Below, piece by piece: positions 2,527 through 46,190 of a DNA stretch of 64,000 nt. Source of the DNA: Clostridia bacterium. Lineage in GTDB: Bacteria > Bacillota > Clostridia > UMGS1883 > UMGS1540. How positions within the stretch are numbered: position 1 is the stretch's first letter; every line of letters starts with the position of its first letter. The stretch lies in assembly GCA_045535515.1 (NCBI GenBank), contig JAZSLT010000010.1, forward strand, positions 1,916 through 65,915, given 5' to 3'. A model generated the notes under the pieces. That model was not told where the DNA came from. It ran no database searches and saw only the letters and a list, made by a program, of their open reading frames with translations. The translations under genes and the position numbers were made by a program.

Positions 2527-3867
2527 ATGCAGAAGAATGACATTTTAACCGTTAAGATTATCGGTCAGGGCTGTGAGGGGGAAGGCGTTGCCAAAATGGA
2601 GGGCTTCCCCCTCTTTATCCCGGGTGCAATCCATGGCGAAGTGTGCCGTGTGCAGGTGGTAAAGCTTGCAAAAGGGCATGGCTTTGCCCGTCTTTTAGAG
2701 GTGGCCGAGCCATCCAAGCATCGCGCCGCGCCGCCTTGTCCCGTGTACACAAAATGCGGCGGCTGCAGCCTTATGCACATGGATAGAGAGGCGCAGCTTT
2801 TGTGGAAACGCGCGCGCGTGAAGGAGGCCTTTCGCCATATCGGCGGCATGGCGGCCACGGTTGCGCCTGTGGAAACGGACGGACGCACCACAGGATATCG
2901 TAATAAAATACAAATGCCGGTAGCGGCGATTAGAGGGCGCATCGCGGCCGGCTTTTTTGCGCCTCGCTCCCACCGCATCGTGCCTTGCGAGGGGTGCCTT
3001 TTGCAATCGGAAAAGACAGGGGAAATTATCCGCACCATCACGCGCTGGATGGAAGAAAACCATATCGCGCCCTACGAGGAGGAAACGCATTGCGGGCAGG
3101 TGCGCCATATCTTCGTGCGCGAAGGGGACGGCGGCGAATGTATGGTCTCCCTCATCACGCGCACGCGCACGCTTTCGGCGACCCGGGAGCTTACAGAGGC
3201 GCTCCTTAAAAAAGGCGTTACTACCATTTTGCAGAACATAAACCCCGCGCGTACCAATGTCATTTTAGGCGCGGAAACGCGCGTTTTATACGGAAGCGGC
3301 AAGGTGCAAAAAAGCCTTGGCGACCTCACCTTTTCCGTTTCGCACCATTCCTTCTTTCAAGTCAACGCACCCATGGCCGAGCGGTTGTACGAAAAGGGAC
3401 TTTCCCTTCTCGGCGATATTGCCGACAAAACGGTTTTCGACCTGTACTGCGGCATCGGCTCCATCTCCCTCTTTTTAGCGAGGCGGGCGAAAAAGGTCAT
3501 CGGCGTTGAAATCGTACCCGAGGCTGTTCGCGATGCCGAGGAAAATGCCCGCCGAAACGGCATAGACAACGCCGTTTTCTATGCAGGCGATGCCTTCGAA
3601 GTAACAAAGGCCTGTATGGAAAAGGGCGAGCGCGCTGATATCGCGGTGGTAGACCCGCCACGAAAGGGCTGCGACCCCCGGCTCCTCGAAACGCTTTTTT
3701 CGATGCGGCCGGAGAAAATATTGTATATTTCCTGTAACCCGGCCACCCTCGCGCGCGACGCAAAGGCTTTGGCCGAAAAAGGCTATCGCATCGGCACCGT
3801 GTATCCTTTTGATTTATTTCCGAACACAAGCCATGTGGAGTGCGTCGTGCGACTATGTCGCACATAA
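2527..3867 (+). CDS. rlmD: 23S rRNA (uracil-C5)-methyltransferase RlmD/RumA family (TRAM domain, 4Fe-4S cysteines, SAM MTase)
   Basis: 446 aa. N-terminal TRAM domain, a CxxxxxCGGC cysteine cluster, a class I SAM-binding motif (DLYCGIGSISL) and the C-terminal catalytic Cys region. Confidence 0.8.
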   Translation: MQKNDILTVKIIGQGCEGEGVAKMEGFPLFIPGAIHGEVCRVQVVKLAKGHGFARLLEVAEPSKHRAAPPCPVYTKCGGCSLMHMDREAQLLWKRARVKEAFRHIGGMAATVAPVETDGRTTGYRNKIQMPVAAIRGRIAAGFFAPRSHRIVPCEGCLLQSEKTGEIIRTITRWMEENHIAPYEEETHCGQVRHIFVREGDGGECMVSLITRTRTLSATRELTEALLKKGVTTILQNINPARTNVILGAETRVLYGSGKVQKSLGDLTFSVSHHSFFQVNAPMAERLYEKGLSLLGDIADKTVFDLYCGIGSISLFLARRAKKVIGVEIVPEAVRDAEENARRNGIDNAVFYAGDAFEVTKACMEKGERADIAVVDPPRKGCDPRLLETLFSMRPEKILYISCNPATLARDAKALAEKGYRIGTVYPFDLFPNTSHVECVVRLCRT

Positions 3868-4012
3868 GACGCATCGATATAAATCTCTTACGAGATTTTC
3901 GATATATCCTAAAGGATTCGATATGTGCCAAGGCACTCGATATGTTTCCTTCGGAAACGAGCAAGGCGAGTATGTCGCACACAACACGCATCGATATAAA
4001 TCTCTTGCGCGG
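3843..4012 (+). repeat. CGATAT box/hairpin array (family A, locus 1) with an internal ~40-bp direct repeat
   Basis: TCGATAT boxes start at 3874, 3899, 3918 and 3937 (spacing 25, 19, 19 bp). Each is followed by a different short hairpin: aaatctc/gagattt, atcc/ggat, gtgcc/ggcac, gtttcc/ggaaac. The segment 3843-3883 is repeated at 3972-4012. Confidence 0.7.
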
Positions 4013-4082
4013 CTTTCGGTTGTTCCGTGCATCGCACAAAAAGAGGCAGAAAAAACAATCCCTCCGCGTTTGCTACGCAAAC

Positions 4083-4112
4083 CCGCCTCCCTTTACACAA
4101 GGGAGGCTTTTT
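4083..4112 (+). terminator. intrinsic terminator hairpin (gcctccc...gggaggc + T-run), likely for rlmD
   Basis: A GC-rich 7-bp stem followed by TTTTTATTT. Confidence 0.5.
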
Positions 4113-4139
4113 ATTTGCACACGGAAGCATTCAAAATTA

Positions 4140-4178
4140 AGAAAGAAATCCGCTGTAAGGCGGATTTCTTTCTTATTC
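4140..4178. terminator. hairpin aagaaagaaatccgc-tgtaa-ggcggatttctttctt (first copy)
   Basis: A 15-bp stem flanked by A-rich and T-rich runs. An identical copy lies at 4353-4391. Confidence 0.5.
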
Positions 4179-4249
4179 GTTTTTATTTTGTTTTTACCTT
4201 GTGGGGTCTGTGCAGTTTTTGGGGGCGAAAGAAAAGTGTGCAGATTGTG

Positions 4250-4329
4250 CAAACTGAGCGAAAACAAGGCGTAGCCTTGTTTTCGGTTACCCGAAAGCGT
4301 ACATGGGTACGCTGAGTGGCGAAGTTTGT
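4250..4329 (+). ncRNA. three-way-junction structured repeat, copy E1 (unclassified RNA-like element)
   Basis: P1 caaact/agtttg. P2 cgaaaacaaggc-gta-gccttgttttcg. Conserved acccgaa(a)g linker. P3 cgtac-atgg-gtacg. Conserved gagtggcgaag. Confidence 0.45.
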
Positions 4330-4352
4330 GCAAACCACAAGGCGTTCAGATT

Positions 4353-4391
4353 AAAAAAGAAATCCGCTGTAAGGCGGATTTCTTTCTTCTT
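4353..4391. terminator. second copy of the gaaatccgc...gcggatttc hairpin
   Basis: Same stem sequence as 4140-4178. It follows E1 after an AAAAAAG run. Confidence 0.5.
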
Positions 4392-4466
4392 AATTTCTTA
4401 TTCCATTTTTGCCTTGTGGGTTCTGCGCAGTTTCTTGTGGGGATGGAAAAAAAGATGCAGAATAAA

Positions 4467-4540
4467 CGAACTGAGCCGAGCGAGCTTACTCGCGAGGGAT
4501 ACCCGAAGTCGTACATGGGTACGACGAGCGGCGAAGTTCG
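4467..4540 (+). ncRNA. three-way-junction structured repeat, copy E2
   Basis: P1 cgaact/agttcg, a compensatory change relative to E1. P2 cgagcgag-cttac-ctcgcgag. Conserved acccgaagt. P3 tcgtac-atgg-gtacga. Conserved gagcggcgaag. Confidence 0.45.
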
Positions 4541-4564
4541 TTTAGAGCTTATGGGCATAAAAAA

Positions 4565-4595
4565 GTAGAAATCTGCAAAAATTGCAGATTTCTAC
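4565..4595. terminator. hairpin gtagaaatctgc-aaaaatt-gcagatttctac following E2
   Basis: A 12-bp perfect stem flanked by AAAAAA upstream and a T-rich tail downstream. Confidence 0.45.
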
Positions 4596-4689
4596 ATAAA
4601 GTTACTTGTTATGGTATTTTCTACATTTTAGAAATGTTAAAAACTTGCCCATAAGCGGTCAGCGCTTTTTTTACATTCCCAGCCCCGAT

Positions 4690-6513
4690 TTATTCGGGCA
4701 TGATAATAATTGCCGTCGCCTCATACGCCCCGCTGGAGGTAAGGCCTGTTACGGAAACCTTCATGCCGGTTTTGAGGTCCTTCACGGTCCTTGCAGAGCC
4801 GTCACCACTATCAATAACCTTGAGGTTTGCGCGTTTGGTGAAGACCGTCAGCGTCGAGGTTGCGCCGTTTTCATCGAGTGTGGCCAGCGTGAAGAAGCCA
4901 TACGAGGTGTTAATCGTTTCAATCGTACCGGTGATGGCCGCTGTGGTGGCCGGCGCCGTGCTGGTAAGGCTCGTTACCGTTTCGCTGTCAACGCTTGCGC
5001 TGATGGAGGCGCCGAGGCGCAGGTCATAAATCGTGCCTTCCTTGCCGTCCACGGTGTAGACGCAATCGCGCGATAAGCTATAGGTGCTCACAGCGTTGTT
5101 TGCGCGGATTTTAATGGCCGGAAGCTTGGCAATAATAATTTCCTCAATCGTGCCTTGTGTGATAAACTTGCTGCTGGTAGCCGTTACGGTGGCTACTCTT
5201 TCGTAGCGAAGGAGTACGGTAACCTTATCGCCGACGAGAATCTGGTCGGCCTCTGCGGAGGCGCCGTTTCTTTTCGCCACTACACTTTCCGCTACCTGAT
5301 AGGTTTCCACCTCGCCGTTTGTAAGGCGGATGGCATAGGAAAGCACAGGCTCCAGCGTAATATTTTCAATCGTACCTTTAATGTTTCGTTCGCTTTCCTC
5401 GGCTTCAATCACCACGACCTCGCCCGCGCGAATCTGCAGCTTTACGGCCTGCAGGCGTTTTAAATCAGAAATCGTGCCTGCGGTGCCCTCATAGGTGATA
5501 GCAGCTTCGTCCGAAATCGGATAGGTAAATTCCTCCTCGTCGTTATCTATGGCAAATACCGTGATTTTCTTTTCGCGGCCGGTGGTGACGACAGAAGAAA
5601 TGGCACCCTCAAATATCTCGTCCGGTTCTCTTGTGATGGTATCTATGCCATACAGAACTTCATCGCGCAGCGTAAGTAAAAGCTCGGAGCCTAAGGCGAT
5701 GCGGGAGAAATCCTCGCTATAGCCGTCCTGCTTTATGAGCGGCTTTGTTCCTACGGCTGTGCTAATCTGTGCTTCTTCCCCTTCCTCTGTCAGGAAAGTA
5801 ATGGTTTCCAGCTCGCTGTCAACCTCTTTCACCGTACCCAGCACATAGGTTTCCTTCATTTTGCCGCGCAGGCGATACAAAAGCGTGGCAATCTGCGCGC
5901 GGTTTACCTCTTCCATGGGGCCGAACAGGCCGTCGCCCATGCCGTTCATCAGTTCCTCATCCGTTACATAGCGCACATACGGCTTTGCATCGGCGGGGAT
6001 ATCCGCAGAGTCTTTATATTCTCCGGTGGAGGCATCGAGGTCCACCTTATTGCCCGCGCCCATAACGCGTGTTAAGAGCTTGGCCACCTCGTAGCGCTTC
6101 ATACCGGTCGAAGCATTGTCGCCCCCGATATAGAAGGACAGTTCCTTCTCCGTCAGCACTTCCTTATACAGGAGGAAGGCAACCTCGCTTTCATAAGGTG
6201 TATCATACTTTTCTAAAATGTCCGCATAAAACTCGGTGGCAAAGGCAGAAAAGGAGCTGAGCGTTTCATTGGTAAAGCCCAAGATACGCGCACTTAAAAC
6301 CAATGCCTCGATTTTGGTAACGGTGCGTTCCGGCTTAAAGGTGTTATCGGTGTAACCCTTAATAATGCCGTCCTCCACCATTTCCTCTACCGCATCCAGC
6401 GCCCAACCGTAGCTGTCTTTGGTAACATCGGGGAAGGTGGCCGCCATTGCAGACAGGCCCATTGTGCCTAAAAGTATAGCCGCGAGTACTACGCAAATCA
6501 ACTTTTTACTCAT
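4690..6513 (-). CDS. S-layer homology (SLH) domain cell-wall-anchored protein
   Basis: Signal peptide, then three SLH-like repeats (FPDVTKDSYGWALDAVEEMVEDGIIKGY, etc.) ahead of a long extracellular region. 607 aa. Confidence 0.7.
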   Translation of the reverse strand: MSKKLICVVLAAILLGTMGLSAMAATFPDVTKDSYGWALDAVEEMVEDGIIKGYTDNTFKPERTVTKIEALVLSARILGFTNETLSSFSAFATEFYADILEKYDTPYESEVAFLLYKEVLTEKELSFYIGGDNASTGMKRYEVAKLLTRVMGAGNKVDLDASTGEYKDSADIPADAKPYVRYVTDEELMNGMGDGLFGPMEEVNRAQIATLLYRLRGKMKETYVLGTVKEVDSELETITFLTEEGEEAQISTAVGTKPLIKQDGYSEDFSRIALGSELLLTLRDEVLYGIDTITREPDEIFEGAISSVVTTGREKKITVFAIDNDEEEFTYPISDEAAITYEGTAGTISDLKRLQAVKLQIRAGEVVVIEAEESERNIKGTIENITLEPVLSYAIRLTNGEVETYQVAESVVAKRNGASAEADQILVGDKVTVLLRYERVATVTATSSKFITQGTIEEIIIAKLPAIKIRANNAVSTYSLSRDCVYTVDGKEGTIYDLRLGASISASVDSETVTSLTSTAPATTAAITGTIETINTSYGFFTLATLDENGATSTLTVFTKRANLKVIDSGDGSARTVKDLKTGMKVSVTGLTSSGAYEATAIIIMPE

Positions 6514-11383: not shown

Positions 11384-11560
11384 AGTGATATTCCAACTTC
11401 GTTGGCGTGATATTTTTGATAAATCAAAAGTGATATTGAAACCTTATGGTTTCAGTGATATTATATTTGCCATTAAACTGTGCGAAGCAAAATATCACTC
11501 GGCGAAGCCGAATATAACTGCGAAGCAATATAACTTGCCAAAGGCAAATATAACTGAAAA
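11384..11560 (+). repeat. GTGATATT / AATATAACT box-hairpin array (family B)
   Basis: Four GTGATATT boxes, each followed by a different small hairpin (ccaac/gttgg, tttgat/tcaaaa, gaaacc/ggtttc). Then an inverted AATATCAC. Then three AATATAACT boxes separated by tcggc/gccga, gc/gc and tgcc/ggca hairpins. Confidence 0.65.
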
Positions 11561-28254: not shown

Positions 28255-28325
28255 CGGCGATATAAATTCTTCTCGGAATTTGTGATATGCTGCAAGTAAC
28301 TCGATATGTCCCTTCGGGACGAGAA
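28255..28325 (+). repeat. CGATAT box/hairpin array (family A, locus 2) in the 5' leader of pgeF
   Basis: ggCGATATaaattc..gaattt, gtGATATgctgc, then CTCGATATGTCCC-TTC-GGGACGAG immediately before the RBS AAAGGAG and the ATG at 28338. Confidence 0.65.
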
Positions 28326-28337
28326 AAAGGAGAAACC

Positions 28338-30660: not shown

Positions 30661-30760
30661 TGCGATATATTTGCCTTGCAAATGCGATATACAGGCTACG
30701 CCTGCTCGATATGCCTCGCGGCTCGATATGTTGCCTTGCGGCAACGAGAATTTTACTTAT
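30661..30760 (+). repeat. CGATAT box/hairpin array (family A, locus 3)
   Basis: gtGCGATAT-atttgc/gcaaat, GCGATAT-caggc/gcctg, CGATAT-gcc..ggc, and CTCGATATG-ttgcc-ttgc-ggcaa-CGAG as the terminal module. Confidence 0.65.
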
Positions 30761-30769
30761 AAAAGAAAG

Positions 30770-30808
30770 GGACTGTAAATTAATTCGGCAAATTAATTTA
30801 CGGTCCCT
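30770..30808. terminator. long hairpin gggactgtaaattaatt-cggc-aaattaatttacggtccc
   Basis: A 17-bp stem between array A3 and element E3. Confidence 0.45.
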
Positions 30809-30839
30809 TGGGGAATAGGAAAAAACGATTCAGAATTGT

Positions 30840-30922
30840 CCAAATCGAACACAAAGCAAGGTAAAGCCTTGCTTTGTGGTAACCCGAAGGCGTGCGAGGG
30901 CACGGCGAGAGGTGAGATTTGG
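30840..30922 (+). ncRNA. three-way-junction structured repeat, copy E3
   Basis: P1 ccaaatc/gatttgg. P2 cacaaagcaagg-taaa-gccttgctttgtgg. Conserved aacccgaagg. P3 cgtgc-gaggg-gcacg, with compensatory A:U to G:C changes relative to E1, E2 and E4. Confidence 0.45.
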
Positions 30923-30942
30923 CAATAGCAAAAAGGCATATA

Positions 30943-30972
30943 ATTTGAAGAAAAACATCTGGAAAACAGATG
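30943..30972. terminator. hairpin gaaaaacatctg-gaaaa-cagatgtttttc after E3
   Basis: Perfect 12-bp stem with A/T-rich flanks. Confidence 0.45.
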
Positions 30973-31089
30973 TTTTTCAACATTTATGGTGATTTTAAAT
31001 AATTTACAGGCGAAGGATACTCTGTATTCTTTGTTATCTCTGCCTTTTTGCGGTCTGGACTTTTTTTACATTCCCCATTTTTTGCTTTT

Positions 31090-31674
31090 TTAAAAGCCCT
31101 CCCCCGTGAGGGCGTCGAGCGTTTTTCCATATCCTTCAATAAAATGGTCGAAAAAGAGCTGCACTTCTTCTACGCCGCTCTCATCCAGCGCGCGCCGTAT
31201 GCTTTCCTTCGCGGCCGAAAACTCGCGGTTGCCGCTTTTCTCTTCTTCTATACATTTGATATACGCCGAAAGCTTGTCCGCCGCCTTCACAATCGCGCGT
31301 GCTTCCTCATTTTCGGGAGAAATCAGGGGCGAAAAGGCGGCGCGCATTTCCTCGGGCAGCATCCCGACAAGCTTTTCCTCCGTTTCCTTCTCAAGCGTCT
31401 TATACGCCCGGGCGAGATTTGGATTATTATACTTTACGGGCGTTGGCATATCGCCGGTGATAATTTCCGGCGCATCGTGATAAAGCGCAATGAGCGCGCA
31501 AAAGGCGGCATCGTGCTTTTTGCCGAGGTAGCAATTTCCCAAGGTGGCCAGCGCGTGCGAAAGCATCGCGACCTCCATGGTGTGCTCGCTCAGGGTTTCC
31601 TGCCGCGTAGAGCGCATCAGCGCCCAGCGGTCAATATATTTCATACGGGAGAGCAGGGCGAAAAAATTGCTCAT
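31090..31674 (-). CDS. HD-domain phosphohydrolase (YfbR-like 5'-deoxynucleotidase family)
   Basis: HD motif (LSEHTMEVAMLSHALA...YHDAPEIITGD). 194 aa. Confidence 0.7.
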   Translation of the reverse strand: MSNFFALLSRMKYIDRWALMRSTRQETLSEHTMEVAMLSHALATLGNCYLGKKHDAAFCALIALYHDAPEIITGDMPTPVKYNNPNLARAYKTLEKETEEKLVGMLPEEMRAAFSPLISPENEEARAIVKAADKLSAYIKCIEEEKSGNREFSAAKESIRRALDESGVEEVQLFFDHFIEGYGKTLDALTGEGF

Positions 31675-41035: not shown

Positions 41036-41108
41036 TTTGATGTGGAAGGTAGTGTGCGCCTTTTCTACCCCCACCCGTATTTTAGGGAGGAGAAAAGTGC
41101 GCAGATTG

Positions 41109-41191
41109 GACAAACTGAGCGAAAACGAGGCAAAGCCTTGTTTTCGGGCACCCGAAGTCGTACATGGGTACGACGAGCGGCGAAGTTTGTT
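41109..41191 (+). ncRNA. three-way-junction structured repeat, copy E4
   Basis: P1 gacaaact/agtttgtt. P2 cgaaaacgaggc-aaa-gccttgttttcg. Conserved cacccgaagt. P3 tcgtac-atgg-gtacga. Conserved gagcggcgaag. The surrounding 237-bp segment is bracketed by 20-bp direct repeats at 41052-41071 and 41310-41329. Confidence 0.45.
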
Positions 41192-41328
41192 CAAAACACA
41201 AGGCAACAAAATAAAAAGGAATTCGCGCTTGACGAATTCCTTTCATAAAATCATTCACAAAAACGATGTTGTTTCTGTTTTATTATGGAATTACACCTTG
41301 CCTTGTGTGGTGTGCGCCTTTTCTACCC

Positions 41329-42723
41329 CTAAAACTGAAAGAAATTCTTAGCGTTTTGGTAACTGATGCCGGTTACGATTTCGCCGAGCGCCTCAAAGTC
41401 CGCCGGATACTCGCCGTTTTCTACCCAGCCGCCGATAAGGTTACACATAATGCGGCGGAAATATTCATGCCGCGGGTAGGACATAAAGCTGCGCGAGTCC
41501 GTCAGCATACCGACAAAGCGGCCGAGAAGGCCTAAATTCGCGAGCGAGCGCATCTGCTCCACCATACCGTCGCGCTGGTCATTGAACCACCAGCCGGAGC
41601 CGAACTGAATTTTCGACGGCGCCTCGGTGTCCTGGAAATTGCCGAGCATCGTGGCCAGCACATAGTTATCCTTCGGATTTAAGGTGTACAAAATCGTTTT
41701 CGGCAGCATATCCTGCTCGTTGCACGCATCAAGAAGTGCCGCGAGAGGGGCGGCGATGCACTTATCGTCAATCGAGTCAAAGCCGGTGTCGGGACCGAGC
41801 TTTTTGTACATGCGGCTGTTGTTGTTGCGAAGGGCGCCGATGTGCAGCTGCATCGTCCAGCCGCGTTTTTTGTACTCGGCGGCGAAGAACAGGAGCATAT
41901 ATGTCTTGTACGCGTTGATTTCGTCCTCCGTCAGGGCTTCGCCACCGAGCGCCTTTTTGAAGGCGGCGTTGGCCTCTGCCTTGTCGGTCTTTTTAAAGGG
42001 AACGCCGGCGAGCGCATGGTCGGAAAGGCGGCAGCCTACCTTGTGGAAGAAATCAATTCTGTCCGCAAGAGAAGAGAGGAGCGCGTCAATATCCGTGAAG
42101 GTGGTACCGGTGAGCGCGGCAAGGTCCTTCATGTAGGGCACAAAGGTTTCCAGCTCACAGTTTACCGCCTTGTCGGGCCGGAAGGTGGGCAGAACGCGCA
42201 CGCGGTTTTGCTTTTGCAGCGCAATGTGGTATTCCAGCGTGTCAAGCGGGTCATCGGTCGTGCAGAGAAGCTCCACATTTGACTTTTCAATCAGGCGCAT
42301 GGCCGAAAAATCGTCCGATGCAATCATTTTGTTCGCCTTTTCGTAAATGGCCTTTGCCGATTTTTCATTCAGGATATCGTCAATCCCGAAAAAGCGCTGG
42401 AGCTCCAGATGCGTCCAATGAAAAAGCGGGTTGCCAATGGCATATTTCAGGGTTTTGGCAAACGCCTCAAACTTCTCAAAGTCCGGCTTATCCCCTGTCA
42501 TGTAGTCCTCAGAAATGCCGTTTGAACGCATGGCGCGCCACTTGTAATGGTCGCCACCCAGCATAATTTCCGTAATGTTTTTAAAGCGTCTGTCCTCACA
42601 AATCTCCTTCGGATTTAAGTGACAATGGTAGTCGATAATCGGCATTTTGGCCGCATAATCGTGGTACAGCTTTTGCGCTGTCTTCGTTTCCAGCATAAAA
42701 TTCTTGTCCATAAATGCTTTCAT
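41329..42723 (-). CDS. uxaC: glucuronate isomerase
   Basis: 464 aa with a characteristic N-terminus (LYHDYAAKMPIIDYHCHL). Confidence 0.85.
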   Translation of the reverse strand: MKAFMDKNFMLETKTAQKLYHDYAAKMPIIDYHCHLNPKEICEDRRFKNITEIMLGGDHYKWRAMRSNGISEDYMTGDKPDFEKFEAFAKTLKYAIGNPLFHWTHLELQRFFGIDDILNEKSAKAIYEKANKMIASDDFSAMRLIEKSNVELLCTTDDPLDTLEYHIALQKQNRVRVLPTFRPDKAVNCELETFVPYMKDLAALTGTTFTDIDALLSSLADRIDFFHKVGCRLSDHALAGVPFKKTDKAEANAAFKKALGGEALTEDEINAYKTYMLLFFAAEYKKRGWTMQLHIGALRNNNSRMYKKLGPDTGFDSIDDKCIAAPLAALLDACNEQDMLPKTILYTLNPKDNYVLATMLGNFQDTEAPSKIQFGSGWWFNDQRDGMVEQMRSLANLGLLGRFVGMLTDSRSFMSYPRHEYFRRIMCNLIGGWVENGEYPADFEALGEIVTGISYQNAKNFFQF

Positions 42724-45889: not shown

Positions 45890-46190
45890 TTCAGCGATAT
45901 AAATTCCTGACGGAATTTGCGATATGTACTTCGTACGCGATATATCTTCGATGCGATATGTCCCTTCGGGACGAGAAATAGGAATTTATATCATATCGCA
46001 ACGGAATGAAATGGAGTTATATCGCATTTGAACAGAGTGAAAATATATCGCACGAACGAAGTGAGTATATCGCCAAAAGTCGGCATCTAAATTGTGCACG
46101 AATTCAGCGATATAAATTCCTGACGGAATTTGCGATATGTACTTCGTACGCGATATATCTTCGATGCGATATGTCCCTTCGGGACGGAAA
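45890..46190 (+). repeat. CGATAT box/hairpin array (family A, locus 4): unit, inverted boxes, unit
   Basis: A near-perfect 88-bp direct repeat (45890-45975 and 46098-46186). Each copy has four GCGATAT boxes separated by aattcc/ggaatt, gtac/gtac and gtccc/gggac hairpins. The central 45976-46097 carries four inverted boxes (ATATCGC). The array ends in CGATATGTCCC-TTC-GGGACGG + RBS + ATG at 46203. Confidence 0.7.

Follow-up and report, generated by a model that had tools for sequence, protein, structure and literature searches.

Modular, palindromic intergenic repeats with a conserved three-way junction: a previously undescribed family in uncultured gut Clostridia

Four similar sequences on the plus strand of a 64-kb stretch of DNA from a Clostridia genome (the whole stretch analyzed is referred to below as the window) were proposed in a preliminary description to fold into a three-way junction and to represent a functional RNA, for example, a small RNA or a ribozyme-like junction. 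Are these sequences RNA genes, or are they repeats of some other kind? All four copies are where they had been placed. A degenerate pattern for the core, ACCCGAAR.CGTRC..GGGYACG..GAG, has four matches in the window (0.01 expected by chance), with core starts on the plus strand at positions 4289, 4501, 30882, and 41150; a covariance model derived from 101 relatives likewise recovers these four copies, with scores of 98–109 bits, and nothing else in the 64 kb. We refer to these copies as E1 to E4. The variants previously given for two of the stems, P1 and P3, are correct, and the third stem, P2, is a hairpin that differs in sequence in each copy, as had been stated. The copies lie downstream of plus-strand genes with the identities assigned to them earlier, namely, a TRAM/uracil-5-methyltransferase of the RlmD/RumA type, a YifB-type Mg-chelatase ATPase, and a PpiC-type PPIase. 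The genes downstream of the copies are all on the minus strand and encode an SLH-domain protein, a YfbR-like nucleotidase, and UxaC. The six annotated neighbors in the window are ordinary housekeeping genes that are functionally unrelated to one another. The length first assigned to the element, 75–85 nt, had to be revised: the initial reading captured only part of a unit of ~220–270 nt.

We assign these units to a new family of modular palindromes that lie between genes as repeats in uncultured Clostridia of the gut (Oscillospiraceae/Congzhengia-like). When the whole window was searched against Rfam 15 at gathering thresholds, only two tRNAs and Gut-1 RNA were matched, and at E < 10 the only rows over the junction in the region 4100–4700 were SraB and ncS011, with 15–22 bits versus thresholds of 130 and 48. 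Searches by sequence string and by keyword found no published description of the element. Scanning one genome per GTDB species with a junction-based pattern yielded at least 117 loci; among the 117 matches listed, ~105 are clear homologs and ~12 are chance matches (~17 expected). The hosts of the listed loci are nearly all gut metagenome-assembled genomes (MAGs) labeled Clostridia, Oscillospiraceae, Acutalibacteraceae, or Congzhengia, from ruminants and humans. There are several copies per MAG, at least seven loci matching the strict pattern are present in one MAG, and the same subfamilies (E1/E4-like, E2-like, and E3-like) are common to different species. No element was found in phage and plasmid collections; in IMG/VR, it is present on one contig. 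Overall, ~150 relatives from gut Clostridia MAGs and metagenomes were compared.

The Gut-1 RNA in the window (RF01706, 51.7 bits) adjoins two tRNA genes; the group is located at 11487–11556 on the minus strand and at 45892–45964 and 46105–46177 on the plus strand. In addition, short hairpins with CGATAT(A/G) between them form arrays at several other sites (3849–4018, 28257–28331, and 30665–30745, plus strand), and two of these arrays match Gut-1 below its threshold (33.4 bits, E = 9e-5). Array or Gut-1 copies are seen after genes (rlmD-like and yifB) and also directly before a ribosome-binding site and start codon (46204), and two hairpin arrays lie just upstream of E1 and E3. The 2010 paper describing Gut-1 reportedly found it solely in human-gut metagenomes; the window places it in a Clostridia genome. 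A Bacteroidales origin of the window, which the Gut-1 match had at first suggested, was rejected once the genome scan pointed to MAGs of Clostridia.

In an alignment of 101 copies, RNAalifold predicts a P1 of 10 bp that is followed by a U-A pair, tandem G.A/A.G pairs, a pair that switches between G-C and A-U, and a C-G pair, together with a P3 of 7 bp. Compensatory double changes are found in 15 of the 21 predicted pairs. At the switching pair, UGA[G/A]C covaries with GG[C/U]GA, with G-C in 54 copies and A-U in 42. The segments that were originally regarded as conserved and single stranded are conserved, but the alignment and covariation reveal that they are partly paired: the upstream segment ending in gcagattg belongs to P1 and to a long-range helix, H1, and GAGCGGCGAAG holds both the covarying G-C/A-U pair and the tandem G.A/A.G, which extend P1. 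P2 is much more variable, with 56 distinct sequences in 75 copies, mostly 7–32 nt long, and it folds into a clean hairpin in all of the 25 cases inspected except the shortest one (7 nt). Two paralogs from a single MAG (L004 and L037) have compensatory differences in both P1 and P3.

The first, strict pattern was too narrow at the P3 loop and at the pair that closes P2, and the invariance of a "GG" in each of these two places in the alignments derived from it is a selection artifact. Because this pattern also fixed the junction strands, a second sample was taken from metagenomes and anchored only on the two P1 strands; it comprised 50 distinct copies. Only 8 of the 50 match the strict pattern, and thus the counts from the genome scan underestimate the family, the real size of which is several-fold larger. 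In this P1-anchored sample, CCCGAAG is present in 45 copies and GAGNGGNGAAG in 48, and the G-C/A-U pair is retained in 49, across 31 different P3 hairpins and 19 loop types. Because the junction strands CCCGAAG/GAGNGG are conserved in a sample that was not selected on them, their conservation is genuine. G.U pairs exceed A.C mismatches in P1 (74 to 10), in P3 (36 to 0), and, in the long-range helix, in H1 (130 to 53); the large excess of G.U identifies the plus strand as the folding strand. The junction therefore defines a genuine family under structural selection that evolves like a folded RNA. The part of the original proposal that spoke of a functional-RNA signature stands to the extent that structural selection is evident (compensatory changes in 15 of 21 pairs and a G.U to A.C ratio of 110 to 10 for P1 and P3 together).

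The three-way junction is the 5′ domain of a larger palindromic unit of 220–270 nt, with all units in the family spanning 125–290 nt. On the plus strand, the order is leader, junction, box, box′, and tail, usually followed by a U-tract; box and box′ form a helix, H2, and the tail forms H1 with the leader. The leader, GGGGAUAGGAAAAAAUG.UUCAGAA (also written GGGGATAGGAAAAAATG.TTCAGAAC), precedes P1, and the tail, GCGGUCUGGACUUUUUUUACAUCCCC (consensus after box′, GCGGTCTGGACTTTTTTTACATCCCC), is an imperfect inverted repeat of the leader of ~25 nt. Leader and tail covary between subfamilies. The box starts 12 nt past the core, is 9–12 nt long, and has at least 12 different sequences across copies; in ~70 of 95 copies, its exact reverse complement lies 102–127 nt downstream. 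H2 is either a plain hairpin or encloses an A/T-flanked hairpin and an AT-rich spacer.

In the window, E1 spans positions 4221–4437 on the plus strand (covariance-model match at 4214–4346, 108.8 bits) and consists of a leader (4221–4243), the junction (4244–4333), box (4335–4343), central hairpin (4356–4385), box′ (4411–4419), and a tail (4420–4437) that is truncated and fused to the leader of E2; box and box′ are exact 9-nt reverse complements. Within the E1 junction, P1 (4244–4254/4324–4333) is followed by the tandem G.A, P2 is formed by 4259–4270/4274–4285 and P3 by 4296–4302/4307–4313, and the joining strands are guuACCCGAAA (J2/3) and GAGUGG (J3/1). E2 (4438–4680, plus strand; match at 4431–4558, 106.6 bits) has its leader at 4438–4462, junction at 4463–4544, box at 4547–4557, central hairpin at 4565–4595, box′ at 4646–4656, and tail at 4657–4680, with an exact 11-nt box/box′ pair, and the convergent SLH-domain gene has its stop codon at 4690–4692. 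E3 (30810–31076, plus strand; 98.1 bits) likewise has an exact 11-nt box/box′ pair; its leader (30810–30834), junction (30835–30926), box (30928–30938), central hairpin (30950–30978), box′ (31041–31051), and tail (31052–31076) precede the stop codon of the convergent yfbR-like gene at 31090. In E4 (41085–41329, plus strand; 106.6 bits), the leader (41085–41104), junction (41105–41195), box (41197–41207), central hairpin (41214–41244), and box′ (41298–41308; exact 11-nt pair) are followed by a tail (41309–41329) that overlaps the stop codon of the convergent uxaC gene (41329–41331).

Related fragments adjoin these units. Upstream of E1, a partial unit on the plus strand (4136–4220; 83% direct repeat of 4350–4409, repeat family D9) contains a hairpin (4138–4175), a spacer, a box′-like accttgtgg (4196–4204), and a tail-like ggtctgtgcag (4205–4215) but no three-way junction, and its hairpin scores as a terminator on both strands. 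Directly upstream of the E3 leader, at 30768–30808 on the plus strand, there is a simple hairpin, agggactgtaaattaatt-cggc-aaattaatttacggtccct, which belongs to the H1 stem family but carries no insert; it lies between yifB and the leader, where the yifB terminator would be expected, and the same arrangement is found upstream of many relatives. A solo copy of the E4 tail, gtgtgcgccttttctacccc, lies upstream of the E4 leader (41053–41072, plus strand) as a direct repeat of the real tail, with 20 nt of the left flank matching the tail exactly. The box′ and tail of E2 (4646–4680) are 80% identical to those of E3 (31041–31075), although the two junctions are from different subfamilies; modules appear to have been reshuffled between units. 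As for the window as a whole, its GC skew flips near 16 kb, being negative before and positive after this point; all four units are on the plus strand, as are most genes past ~16 kb, which may reflect a replication-related switch.

Pairing was also assessed over the whole unit by excising the loop of H2 and counting pairs for the pre-specified helices H1, P1, P3, and H2. The proportion of paired cells was 92.5%, compared with 78% in shuffled controls (none of 500 reached the observed value) and 37–49% with slid partners, and double changes were found in 37 of 49 pairs. By helix, pairing was 77–86% for H1, 97% for P1, 99.6% for P3, and 98.9% for H2, the H2 figures being inflated because box′ was located by its exact reverse-complement match. 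The minimum free energy fold of E3 (30808–31080) has −108.6 kcal/mol, with a z-score of −9.7, and contains H1, P1, P2, P3, H2, and the central hairpin.

Not all units are complete. Only H1 and the junction are present at three loci (L057, L107, and L114), and at five others (L058, L081, L101, L111, and L113) H2 is a plain hairpin without an inner hairpin or spacer. Insert-free versions of H1, for example, GGGGGTGTAAAAAAA-loop-TTTTTTTACACCCCC followed by TTTT, are common directly upstream of leaders, where they look like the terminator of the upstream gene, and simple hairpins with H1 arm sequences adjoin complex units in alternating orientation. Some units are also more elaborate. At L055 (element at 3817–3952, minus strand), box′ is 232 nt from box rather than ~115 nt, with an extra segment of ~115 nt between the box and the central hairpin that looks like a nested insertion inside the unit. 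At L015, the spacer-box′-tail segment is duplicated on both sides of one junction (1745–1820 and 1975–2050); the upstream duplicate abuts the ribosome-binding site and start of a divergent gene, and thus the module can also occupy a 5′ region. The units at L075 (~1500–1560) and L036 (~3700–3800) have a different G+C-rich repeat, ..CCACCTCATCCGAGTTGCTTCGCAACCCACCTTCTCCTC.., in place of or after their inner portion, which suggests that a second repeat family inserts into or beside units. A circularly permuted unit, in the order box′-tail-leader-junction-box and transcribed from the spacer, was rejected as the general form because the box′ found upstream of E2, E4, and two other units (L027 and L047) is not complementary to their own box; permuted units are possible in duplicated loci such as L015, L071, L110, and L120.

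What, then, does such a unit do? Its position relative to genes is informative. On the tail side, 59 of 70 units face a convergent gene whose stop codon lies 0–10 nt from the tail. On the leader side, the gene is located at 20–400 nt and is co-directional in 45 cases and divergent in 23 (n = 68). After the tail, at least five T in 8 nt are found in 38 of 70 units and at least four in 47 of 70, compared with 8 of 69 in the reverse sense. The arms of H1 lie 100–250 nt apart. The preliminary description had assigned each copy a terminator of its own, namely, the strong hairpin that follows the junction. By a simple terminator rule, however, this central hairpin passes on the plus strand only in E1; in E2 and E4 it passes only on the minus strand, and in E3 on neither. 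Among 79 units, 29 pass on the minus strand and 17 on the plus strand. The supposed terminator hairpin is enclosed in the covarying H2 and is more frequently compatible with termination on the opposite strand.

These results bear on the suggestion that each copy encodes a self-contained small RNA of ~100–150 nt. A broader version of this idea, in which the units are paralogous, independently expressed small RNAs or RNP scaffolds whose junction binds a protein or small ligand and which act in trans, would agree with several observations: purifying selection acts strongly on the junction core but leaves the stems and P2 variable, the structure is strand specific, its subfamilies are shared by different species, and units fold far better than shuffled sequence, as exemplified by E3. 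However, no conserved sigma-70-type promoter was found upstream of the leader, with 17 weak matches in 69 units at scattered positions rather than at a fixed distance; candidate sigma-H or sigma-A promoters within the leader were discarded because of misfitting hexamers and spacing and no positional enrichment. Furthermore, a complete terminator hairpin lies immediately before many of the units, both H1 and H2, which covary, reach past the hairpin that would end a short RNA, and this hairpin satisfies the plus-strand rule in just the 17 units mentioned above. We therefore consider trans-acting RNAs of this kind unlikely, and the original claim of a self-contained transcript with its own terminator is not supported.

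Two other roles were considered on the basis of gene context and coding potential. Placement as a riboswitch or cis-acting leader does not fit, with the downstream gene convergent in most units and the six window neighbors unrelated. A small basic peptide was suggested by AGGA-N5-ATG in the leader and a 34-aa ORF in one copy; it was rejected, as the frame is not preserved across copies: P2 lengths, which range from 7 to 32 nt, are not confined to multiples of three and place the conserved downstream sequence in differing frames, and some subfamilies lack a start codon.

The same gene context weighs on the idea that the repeat carries, in the form of the junction, a novel self-cleaving ribozyme or orphan ligand-binding aptamer. 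On the one hand, purine-rich joining strands that do not vary and a tandem G.A beside P1 give the three-way junction the appearance of such RNAs, many hammerhead and twister copies are likewise multicopy and spread in association with repeats, and Rfam has no match. On the other hand, where a hammerhead core would have CUGANGA/GAAA/UH, the alignment, read by eye, has UGAGC/UUACCCGAAG/CGAGAGGCGAA; no ribozyme family was matched in the region 4100–4700 even at E < 10; and an aptamer would have no downstream gene to control, most units facing the 3′ end of a convergent gene and the six neighbors being unrelated. Such a catalytic or ligand-binding role is thus very improbable. Nothing that we found supports an independent small RNA or a ribozyme.

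The distribution of units among related genomes provides a different line of evidence. Over 273 nt, E3 shares 91% identity with units in the MAGs of two other species (L064 and L018), whereas the flanks are 55–58% identical, the level of every other pair compared, and encode unrelated genes. Conversely, at orthologous uxaC loci in two relatives (L118 and L119, 85% protein identity) and at orthologous yifB loci in four (L121, L122, L124, and L125, 71–76%), the element is absent and ordinary, unrelated terminators are found in its place; another yifB ortholog (L071, 77%) has a unit of a different subfamily. The same element at non-orthologous sites combined with empty orthologous sites constitutes insertion polymorphism, with site boundaries that are approximate, and leader and tail correspond to the terminal inverted repeats expected of miniature inverted-repeat elements (MITEs). 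Direct repeats of the unit's own tail, or of spacer-box′-tail, border some units. The unit behaves like a mobile or rapidly turning-over intergenic element. Conserved small RNA genes behave otherwise and would not be expected to be missing at orthologous loci of relatives with 71–86% protein identity, which further argues against trans-acting RNAs.

Could the selected form be DNA rather than RNA? The units may be elements whose single-stranded DNA folds are recognized by a recombinase or transposase, in the manner of REP/RAYT, IS200/IS605-PATE-like, or attC-like systems, with the junction as the recognition structure. Leader and tail do resemble terminal inverted repeats and covary between subfamilies, near-identical copies sit in unrelated contexts while orthologous loci are patchy, and next to some units there are further copies of the tail, either solo or in direct repeat. 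Target-site duplications were not detected: identical 3-mers flank 12 of 69 units (permutation mean, 6.8; maximum, 12), and there is no signal for k ≥ 4, as is the case with Y1-transposase and IS110-type elements. Folded DNA also tolerates G.T pairs, and the data would be compatible with folding either as RNA or as single-stranded DNA. However, transposition through single-stranded DNA is accompanied by a strong strand bias, and there is no replication-strand bias here (orientation relative to GC skew is positive in 45 of 95 loci, p = 0.68); orientation instead follows the neighboring genes (59 of 70). A motif scan of the 117 fetched loci (~0.8 Mb), where neighboring genes are unannotated, and of the window gave only three solo leader motifs and no widely separated leader/tail pair. 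No conserved target motif was found beside the unit ends, the element was absent from the plasmid and phage collections, and the annotated neighbors in the window are housekeeping genes. For integron attC sites, retron msr/msd, and TnpB omega-RNA, which were considered as possible resemblances, the defining neighbors (integrase, reverse transcriptase, or tnpB) or core motifs are not seen in the window. Recognition as folded DNA is, in our judgment, also an improbable account. Thus, each of the three alternatives (small RNA or RNP scaffold, ribozyme or aptamer, and single-stranded DNA substrate of a recombinase) fails at least one test.

A further idea is that the junction is the core of a new class of mobile structured RNA that processes itself or recruits or guides a recombinase, as bridge and omega RNAs do, targets terminator-like hairpins, and spreads as a loop insert. 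This would account for the shared H1 arms, the nested variants, the lack of target-site duplications, and the sequence-specific junction; we nevertheless regard it as quite unlikely.

Several known intergenic repeats invite comparison. The pneumococcal BOX (boxA-boxB-boxC), RUP, and SPRITE elements are modular intergenic repeats in which complementary terminal modules close a stem around variable internal modules; they are multicopy, non-coding, located at gene ends, and co-transcribed with their neighbors. Identity with a known repeat of the BOX/RUP type, which the preliminary description had raised, does not hold literally for an undescribed repeat, but the architecture and genomic behavior are BOX-like: a complementary leader and tail enclose an optional junction, H2, and central hairpin with spacer. 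Unlike BOX, the element is found in gut Clostridia rather than in Streptococcus, has no sequence similarity to it, contains a three-way junction with joining strands conserved in sequence across species, and has an outer stem that is followed by a T-tract and matches ordinary terminator-like hairpins of the same genomes.

The REP and BIME sequences of Enterobacteria and Pseudomonas, which are mobilized by RAYT, are extragenic palindromes located at the 3′ ends of genes, frequently where two genes converge; their orientation alternates, they combine with other motifs into mosaics, and they can serve as partial terminators or mRNA stabilizers. The simple H1-arm hairpins that alternate in orientation beside complex units are reminiscent of this arrangement. 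However, REP is a G+C-rich hairpin of 20–40 nt without branched cargo, in contrast to units of 125–290 nt with a conserved junction, and no far-apart leader/tail pair that could bracket a RAYT-like gene was present in the fetched loci, where genes are unannotated. The bcr1 elements of the Bacillus cereus group and the Correia elements of Neisseria are 100–160 nt, multicopy, and intergenic, with inverted-repeat ends and predicted stable RNA folds with compensatory changes, and they affect the termination or stability of neighboring transcripts. They generate target-site duplications (TTTAT for bcr1 and TA for Correia), which were not detected for our element, and have no sequence or structural similarity to it. 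Finally, like bidirectional intrinsic terminators, the element lies between convergent stop codons and has an outer stem with a T-tract (38 of 70 units), and its A/T-flanked central hairpin fits a minus-strand terminator in 29 of 79. Ordinary terminators have loops of 3–8 nt and no conservation across loci, whereas the "loop" of H1 is 80–240 nt of conserved, independently folding RNA.

Taken together, we favor, with a probability of roughly 0.55, the interpretation that the units are a BOX/REP-like structured intergenic repeat that elaborates a terminator hairpin and acts as a two-way stop or insulator, with the junction as cargo. The plus-strand fold, the polarity of the T-tract, and the covariation of H1 and H2 argue for a plus-strand RNA that extends from the leader through the tail as the form under selection. 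Transcription reading through from the leader side would yield this RNA, which would adopt the multi-domain fold closed by H1 and end at the U-tract, against the stop codon of the convergent gene, with H1 as the terminator stem. The convergent gene's own transcript would end at the central hairpin. The unit would thereby separate gene ends as a compact insulator or two-way stop for transcription that resists nucleases, and units would be gained, lost, and copied between loci without leaving a target-site duplication. The junction would be a conserved cargo domain; its sequence-specific core implies recognition by some factor, which it most likely binds. Some observations sit less easily with this interpretation. 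A complete simple terminator hairpin stands before many units and would limit the entry of transcription into the element, and in 23 of 68 cases the gene on the leader side is oriented away from the unit. In addition, a terminator stem with arms 150–250 nt apart is unusual, and a purely structural role in termination leaves the conservation of the junction sequence unexplained.

If the repeat interpretation is correct, an abundant uncultured clade of gut Clostridia would have large structured intergenic modules that reshape the 3′ ends of unrelated genes. Those who search for RNA motifs would gain a well-supported three-way-junction motif with a sequence-specific core, and annotators would be warned that this motif marks a repeat module rather than a riboswitch or a small RNA gene. 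The family would also provide a tractable case of terminator hairpins acquiring and keeping folded inserts.
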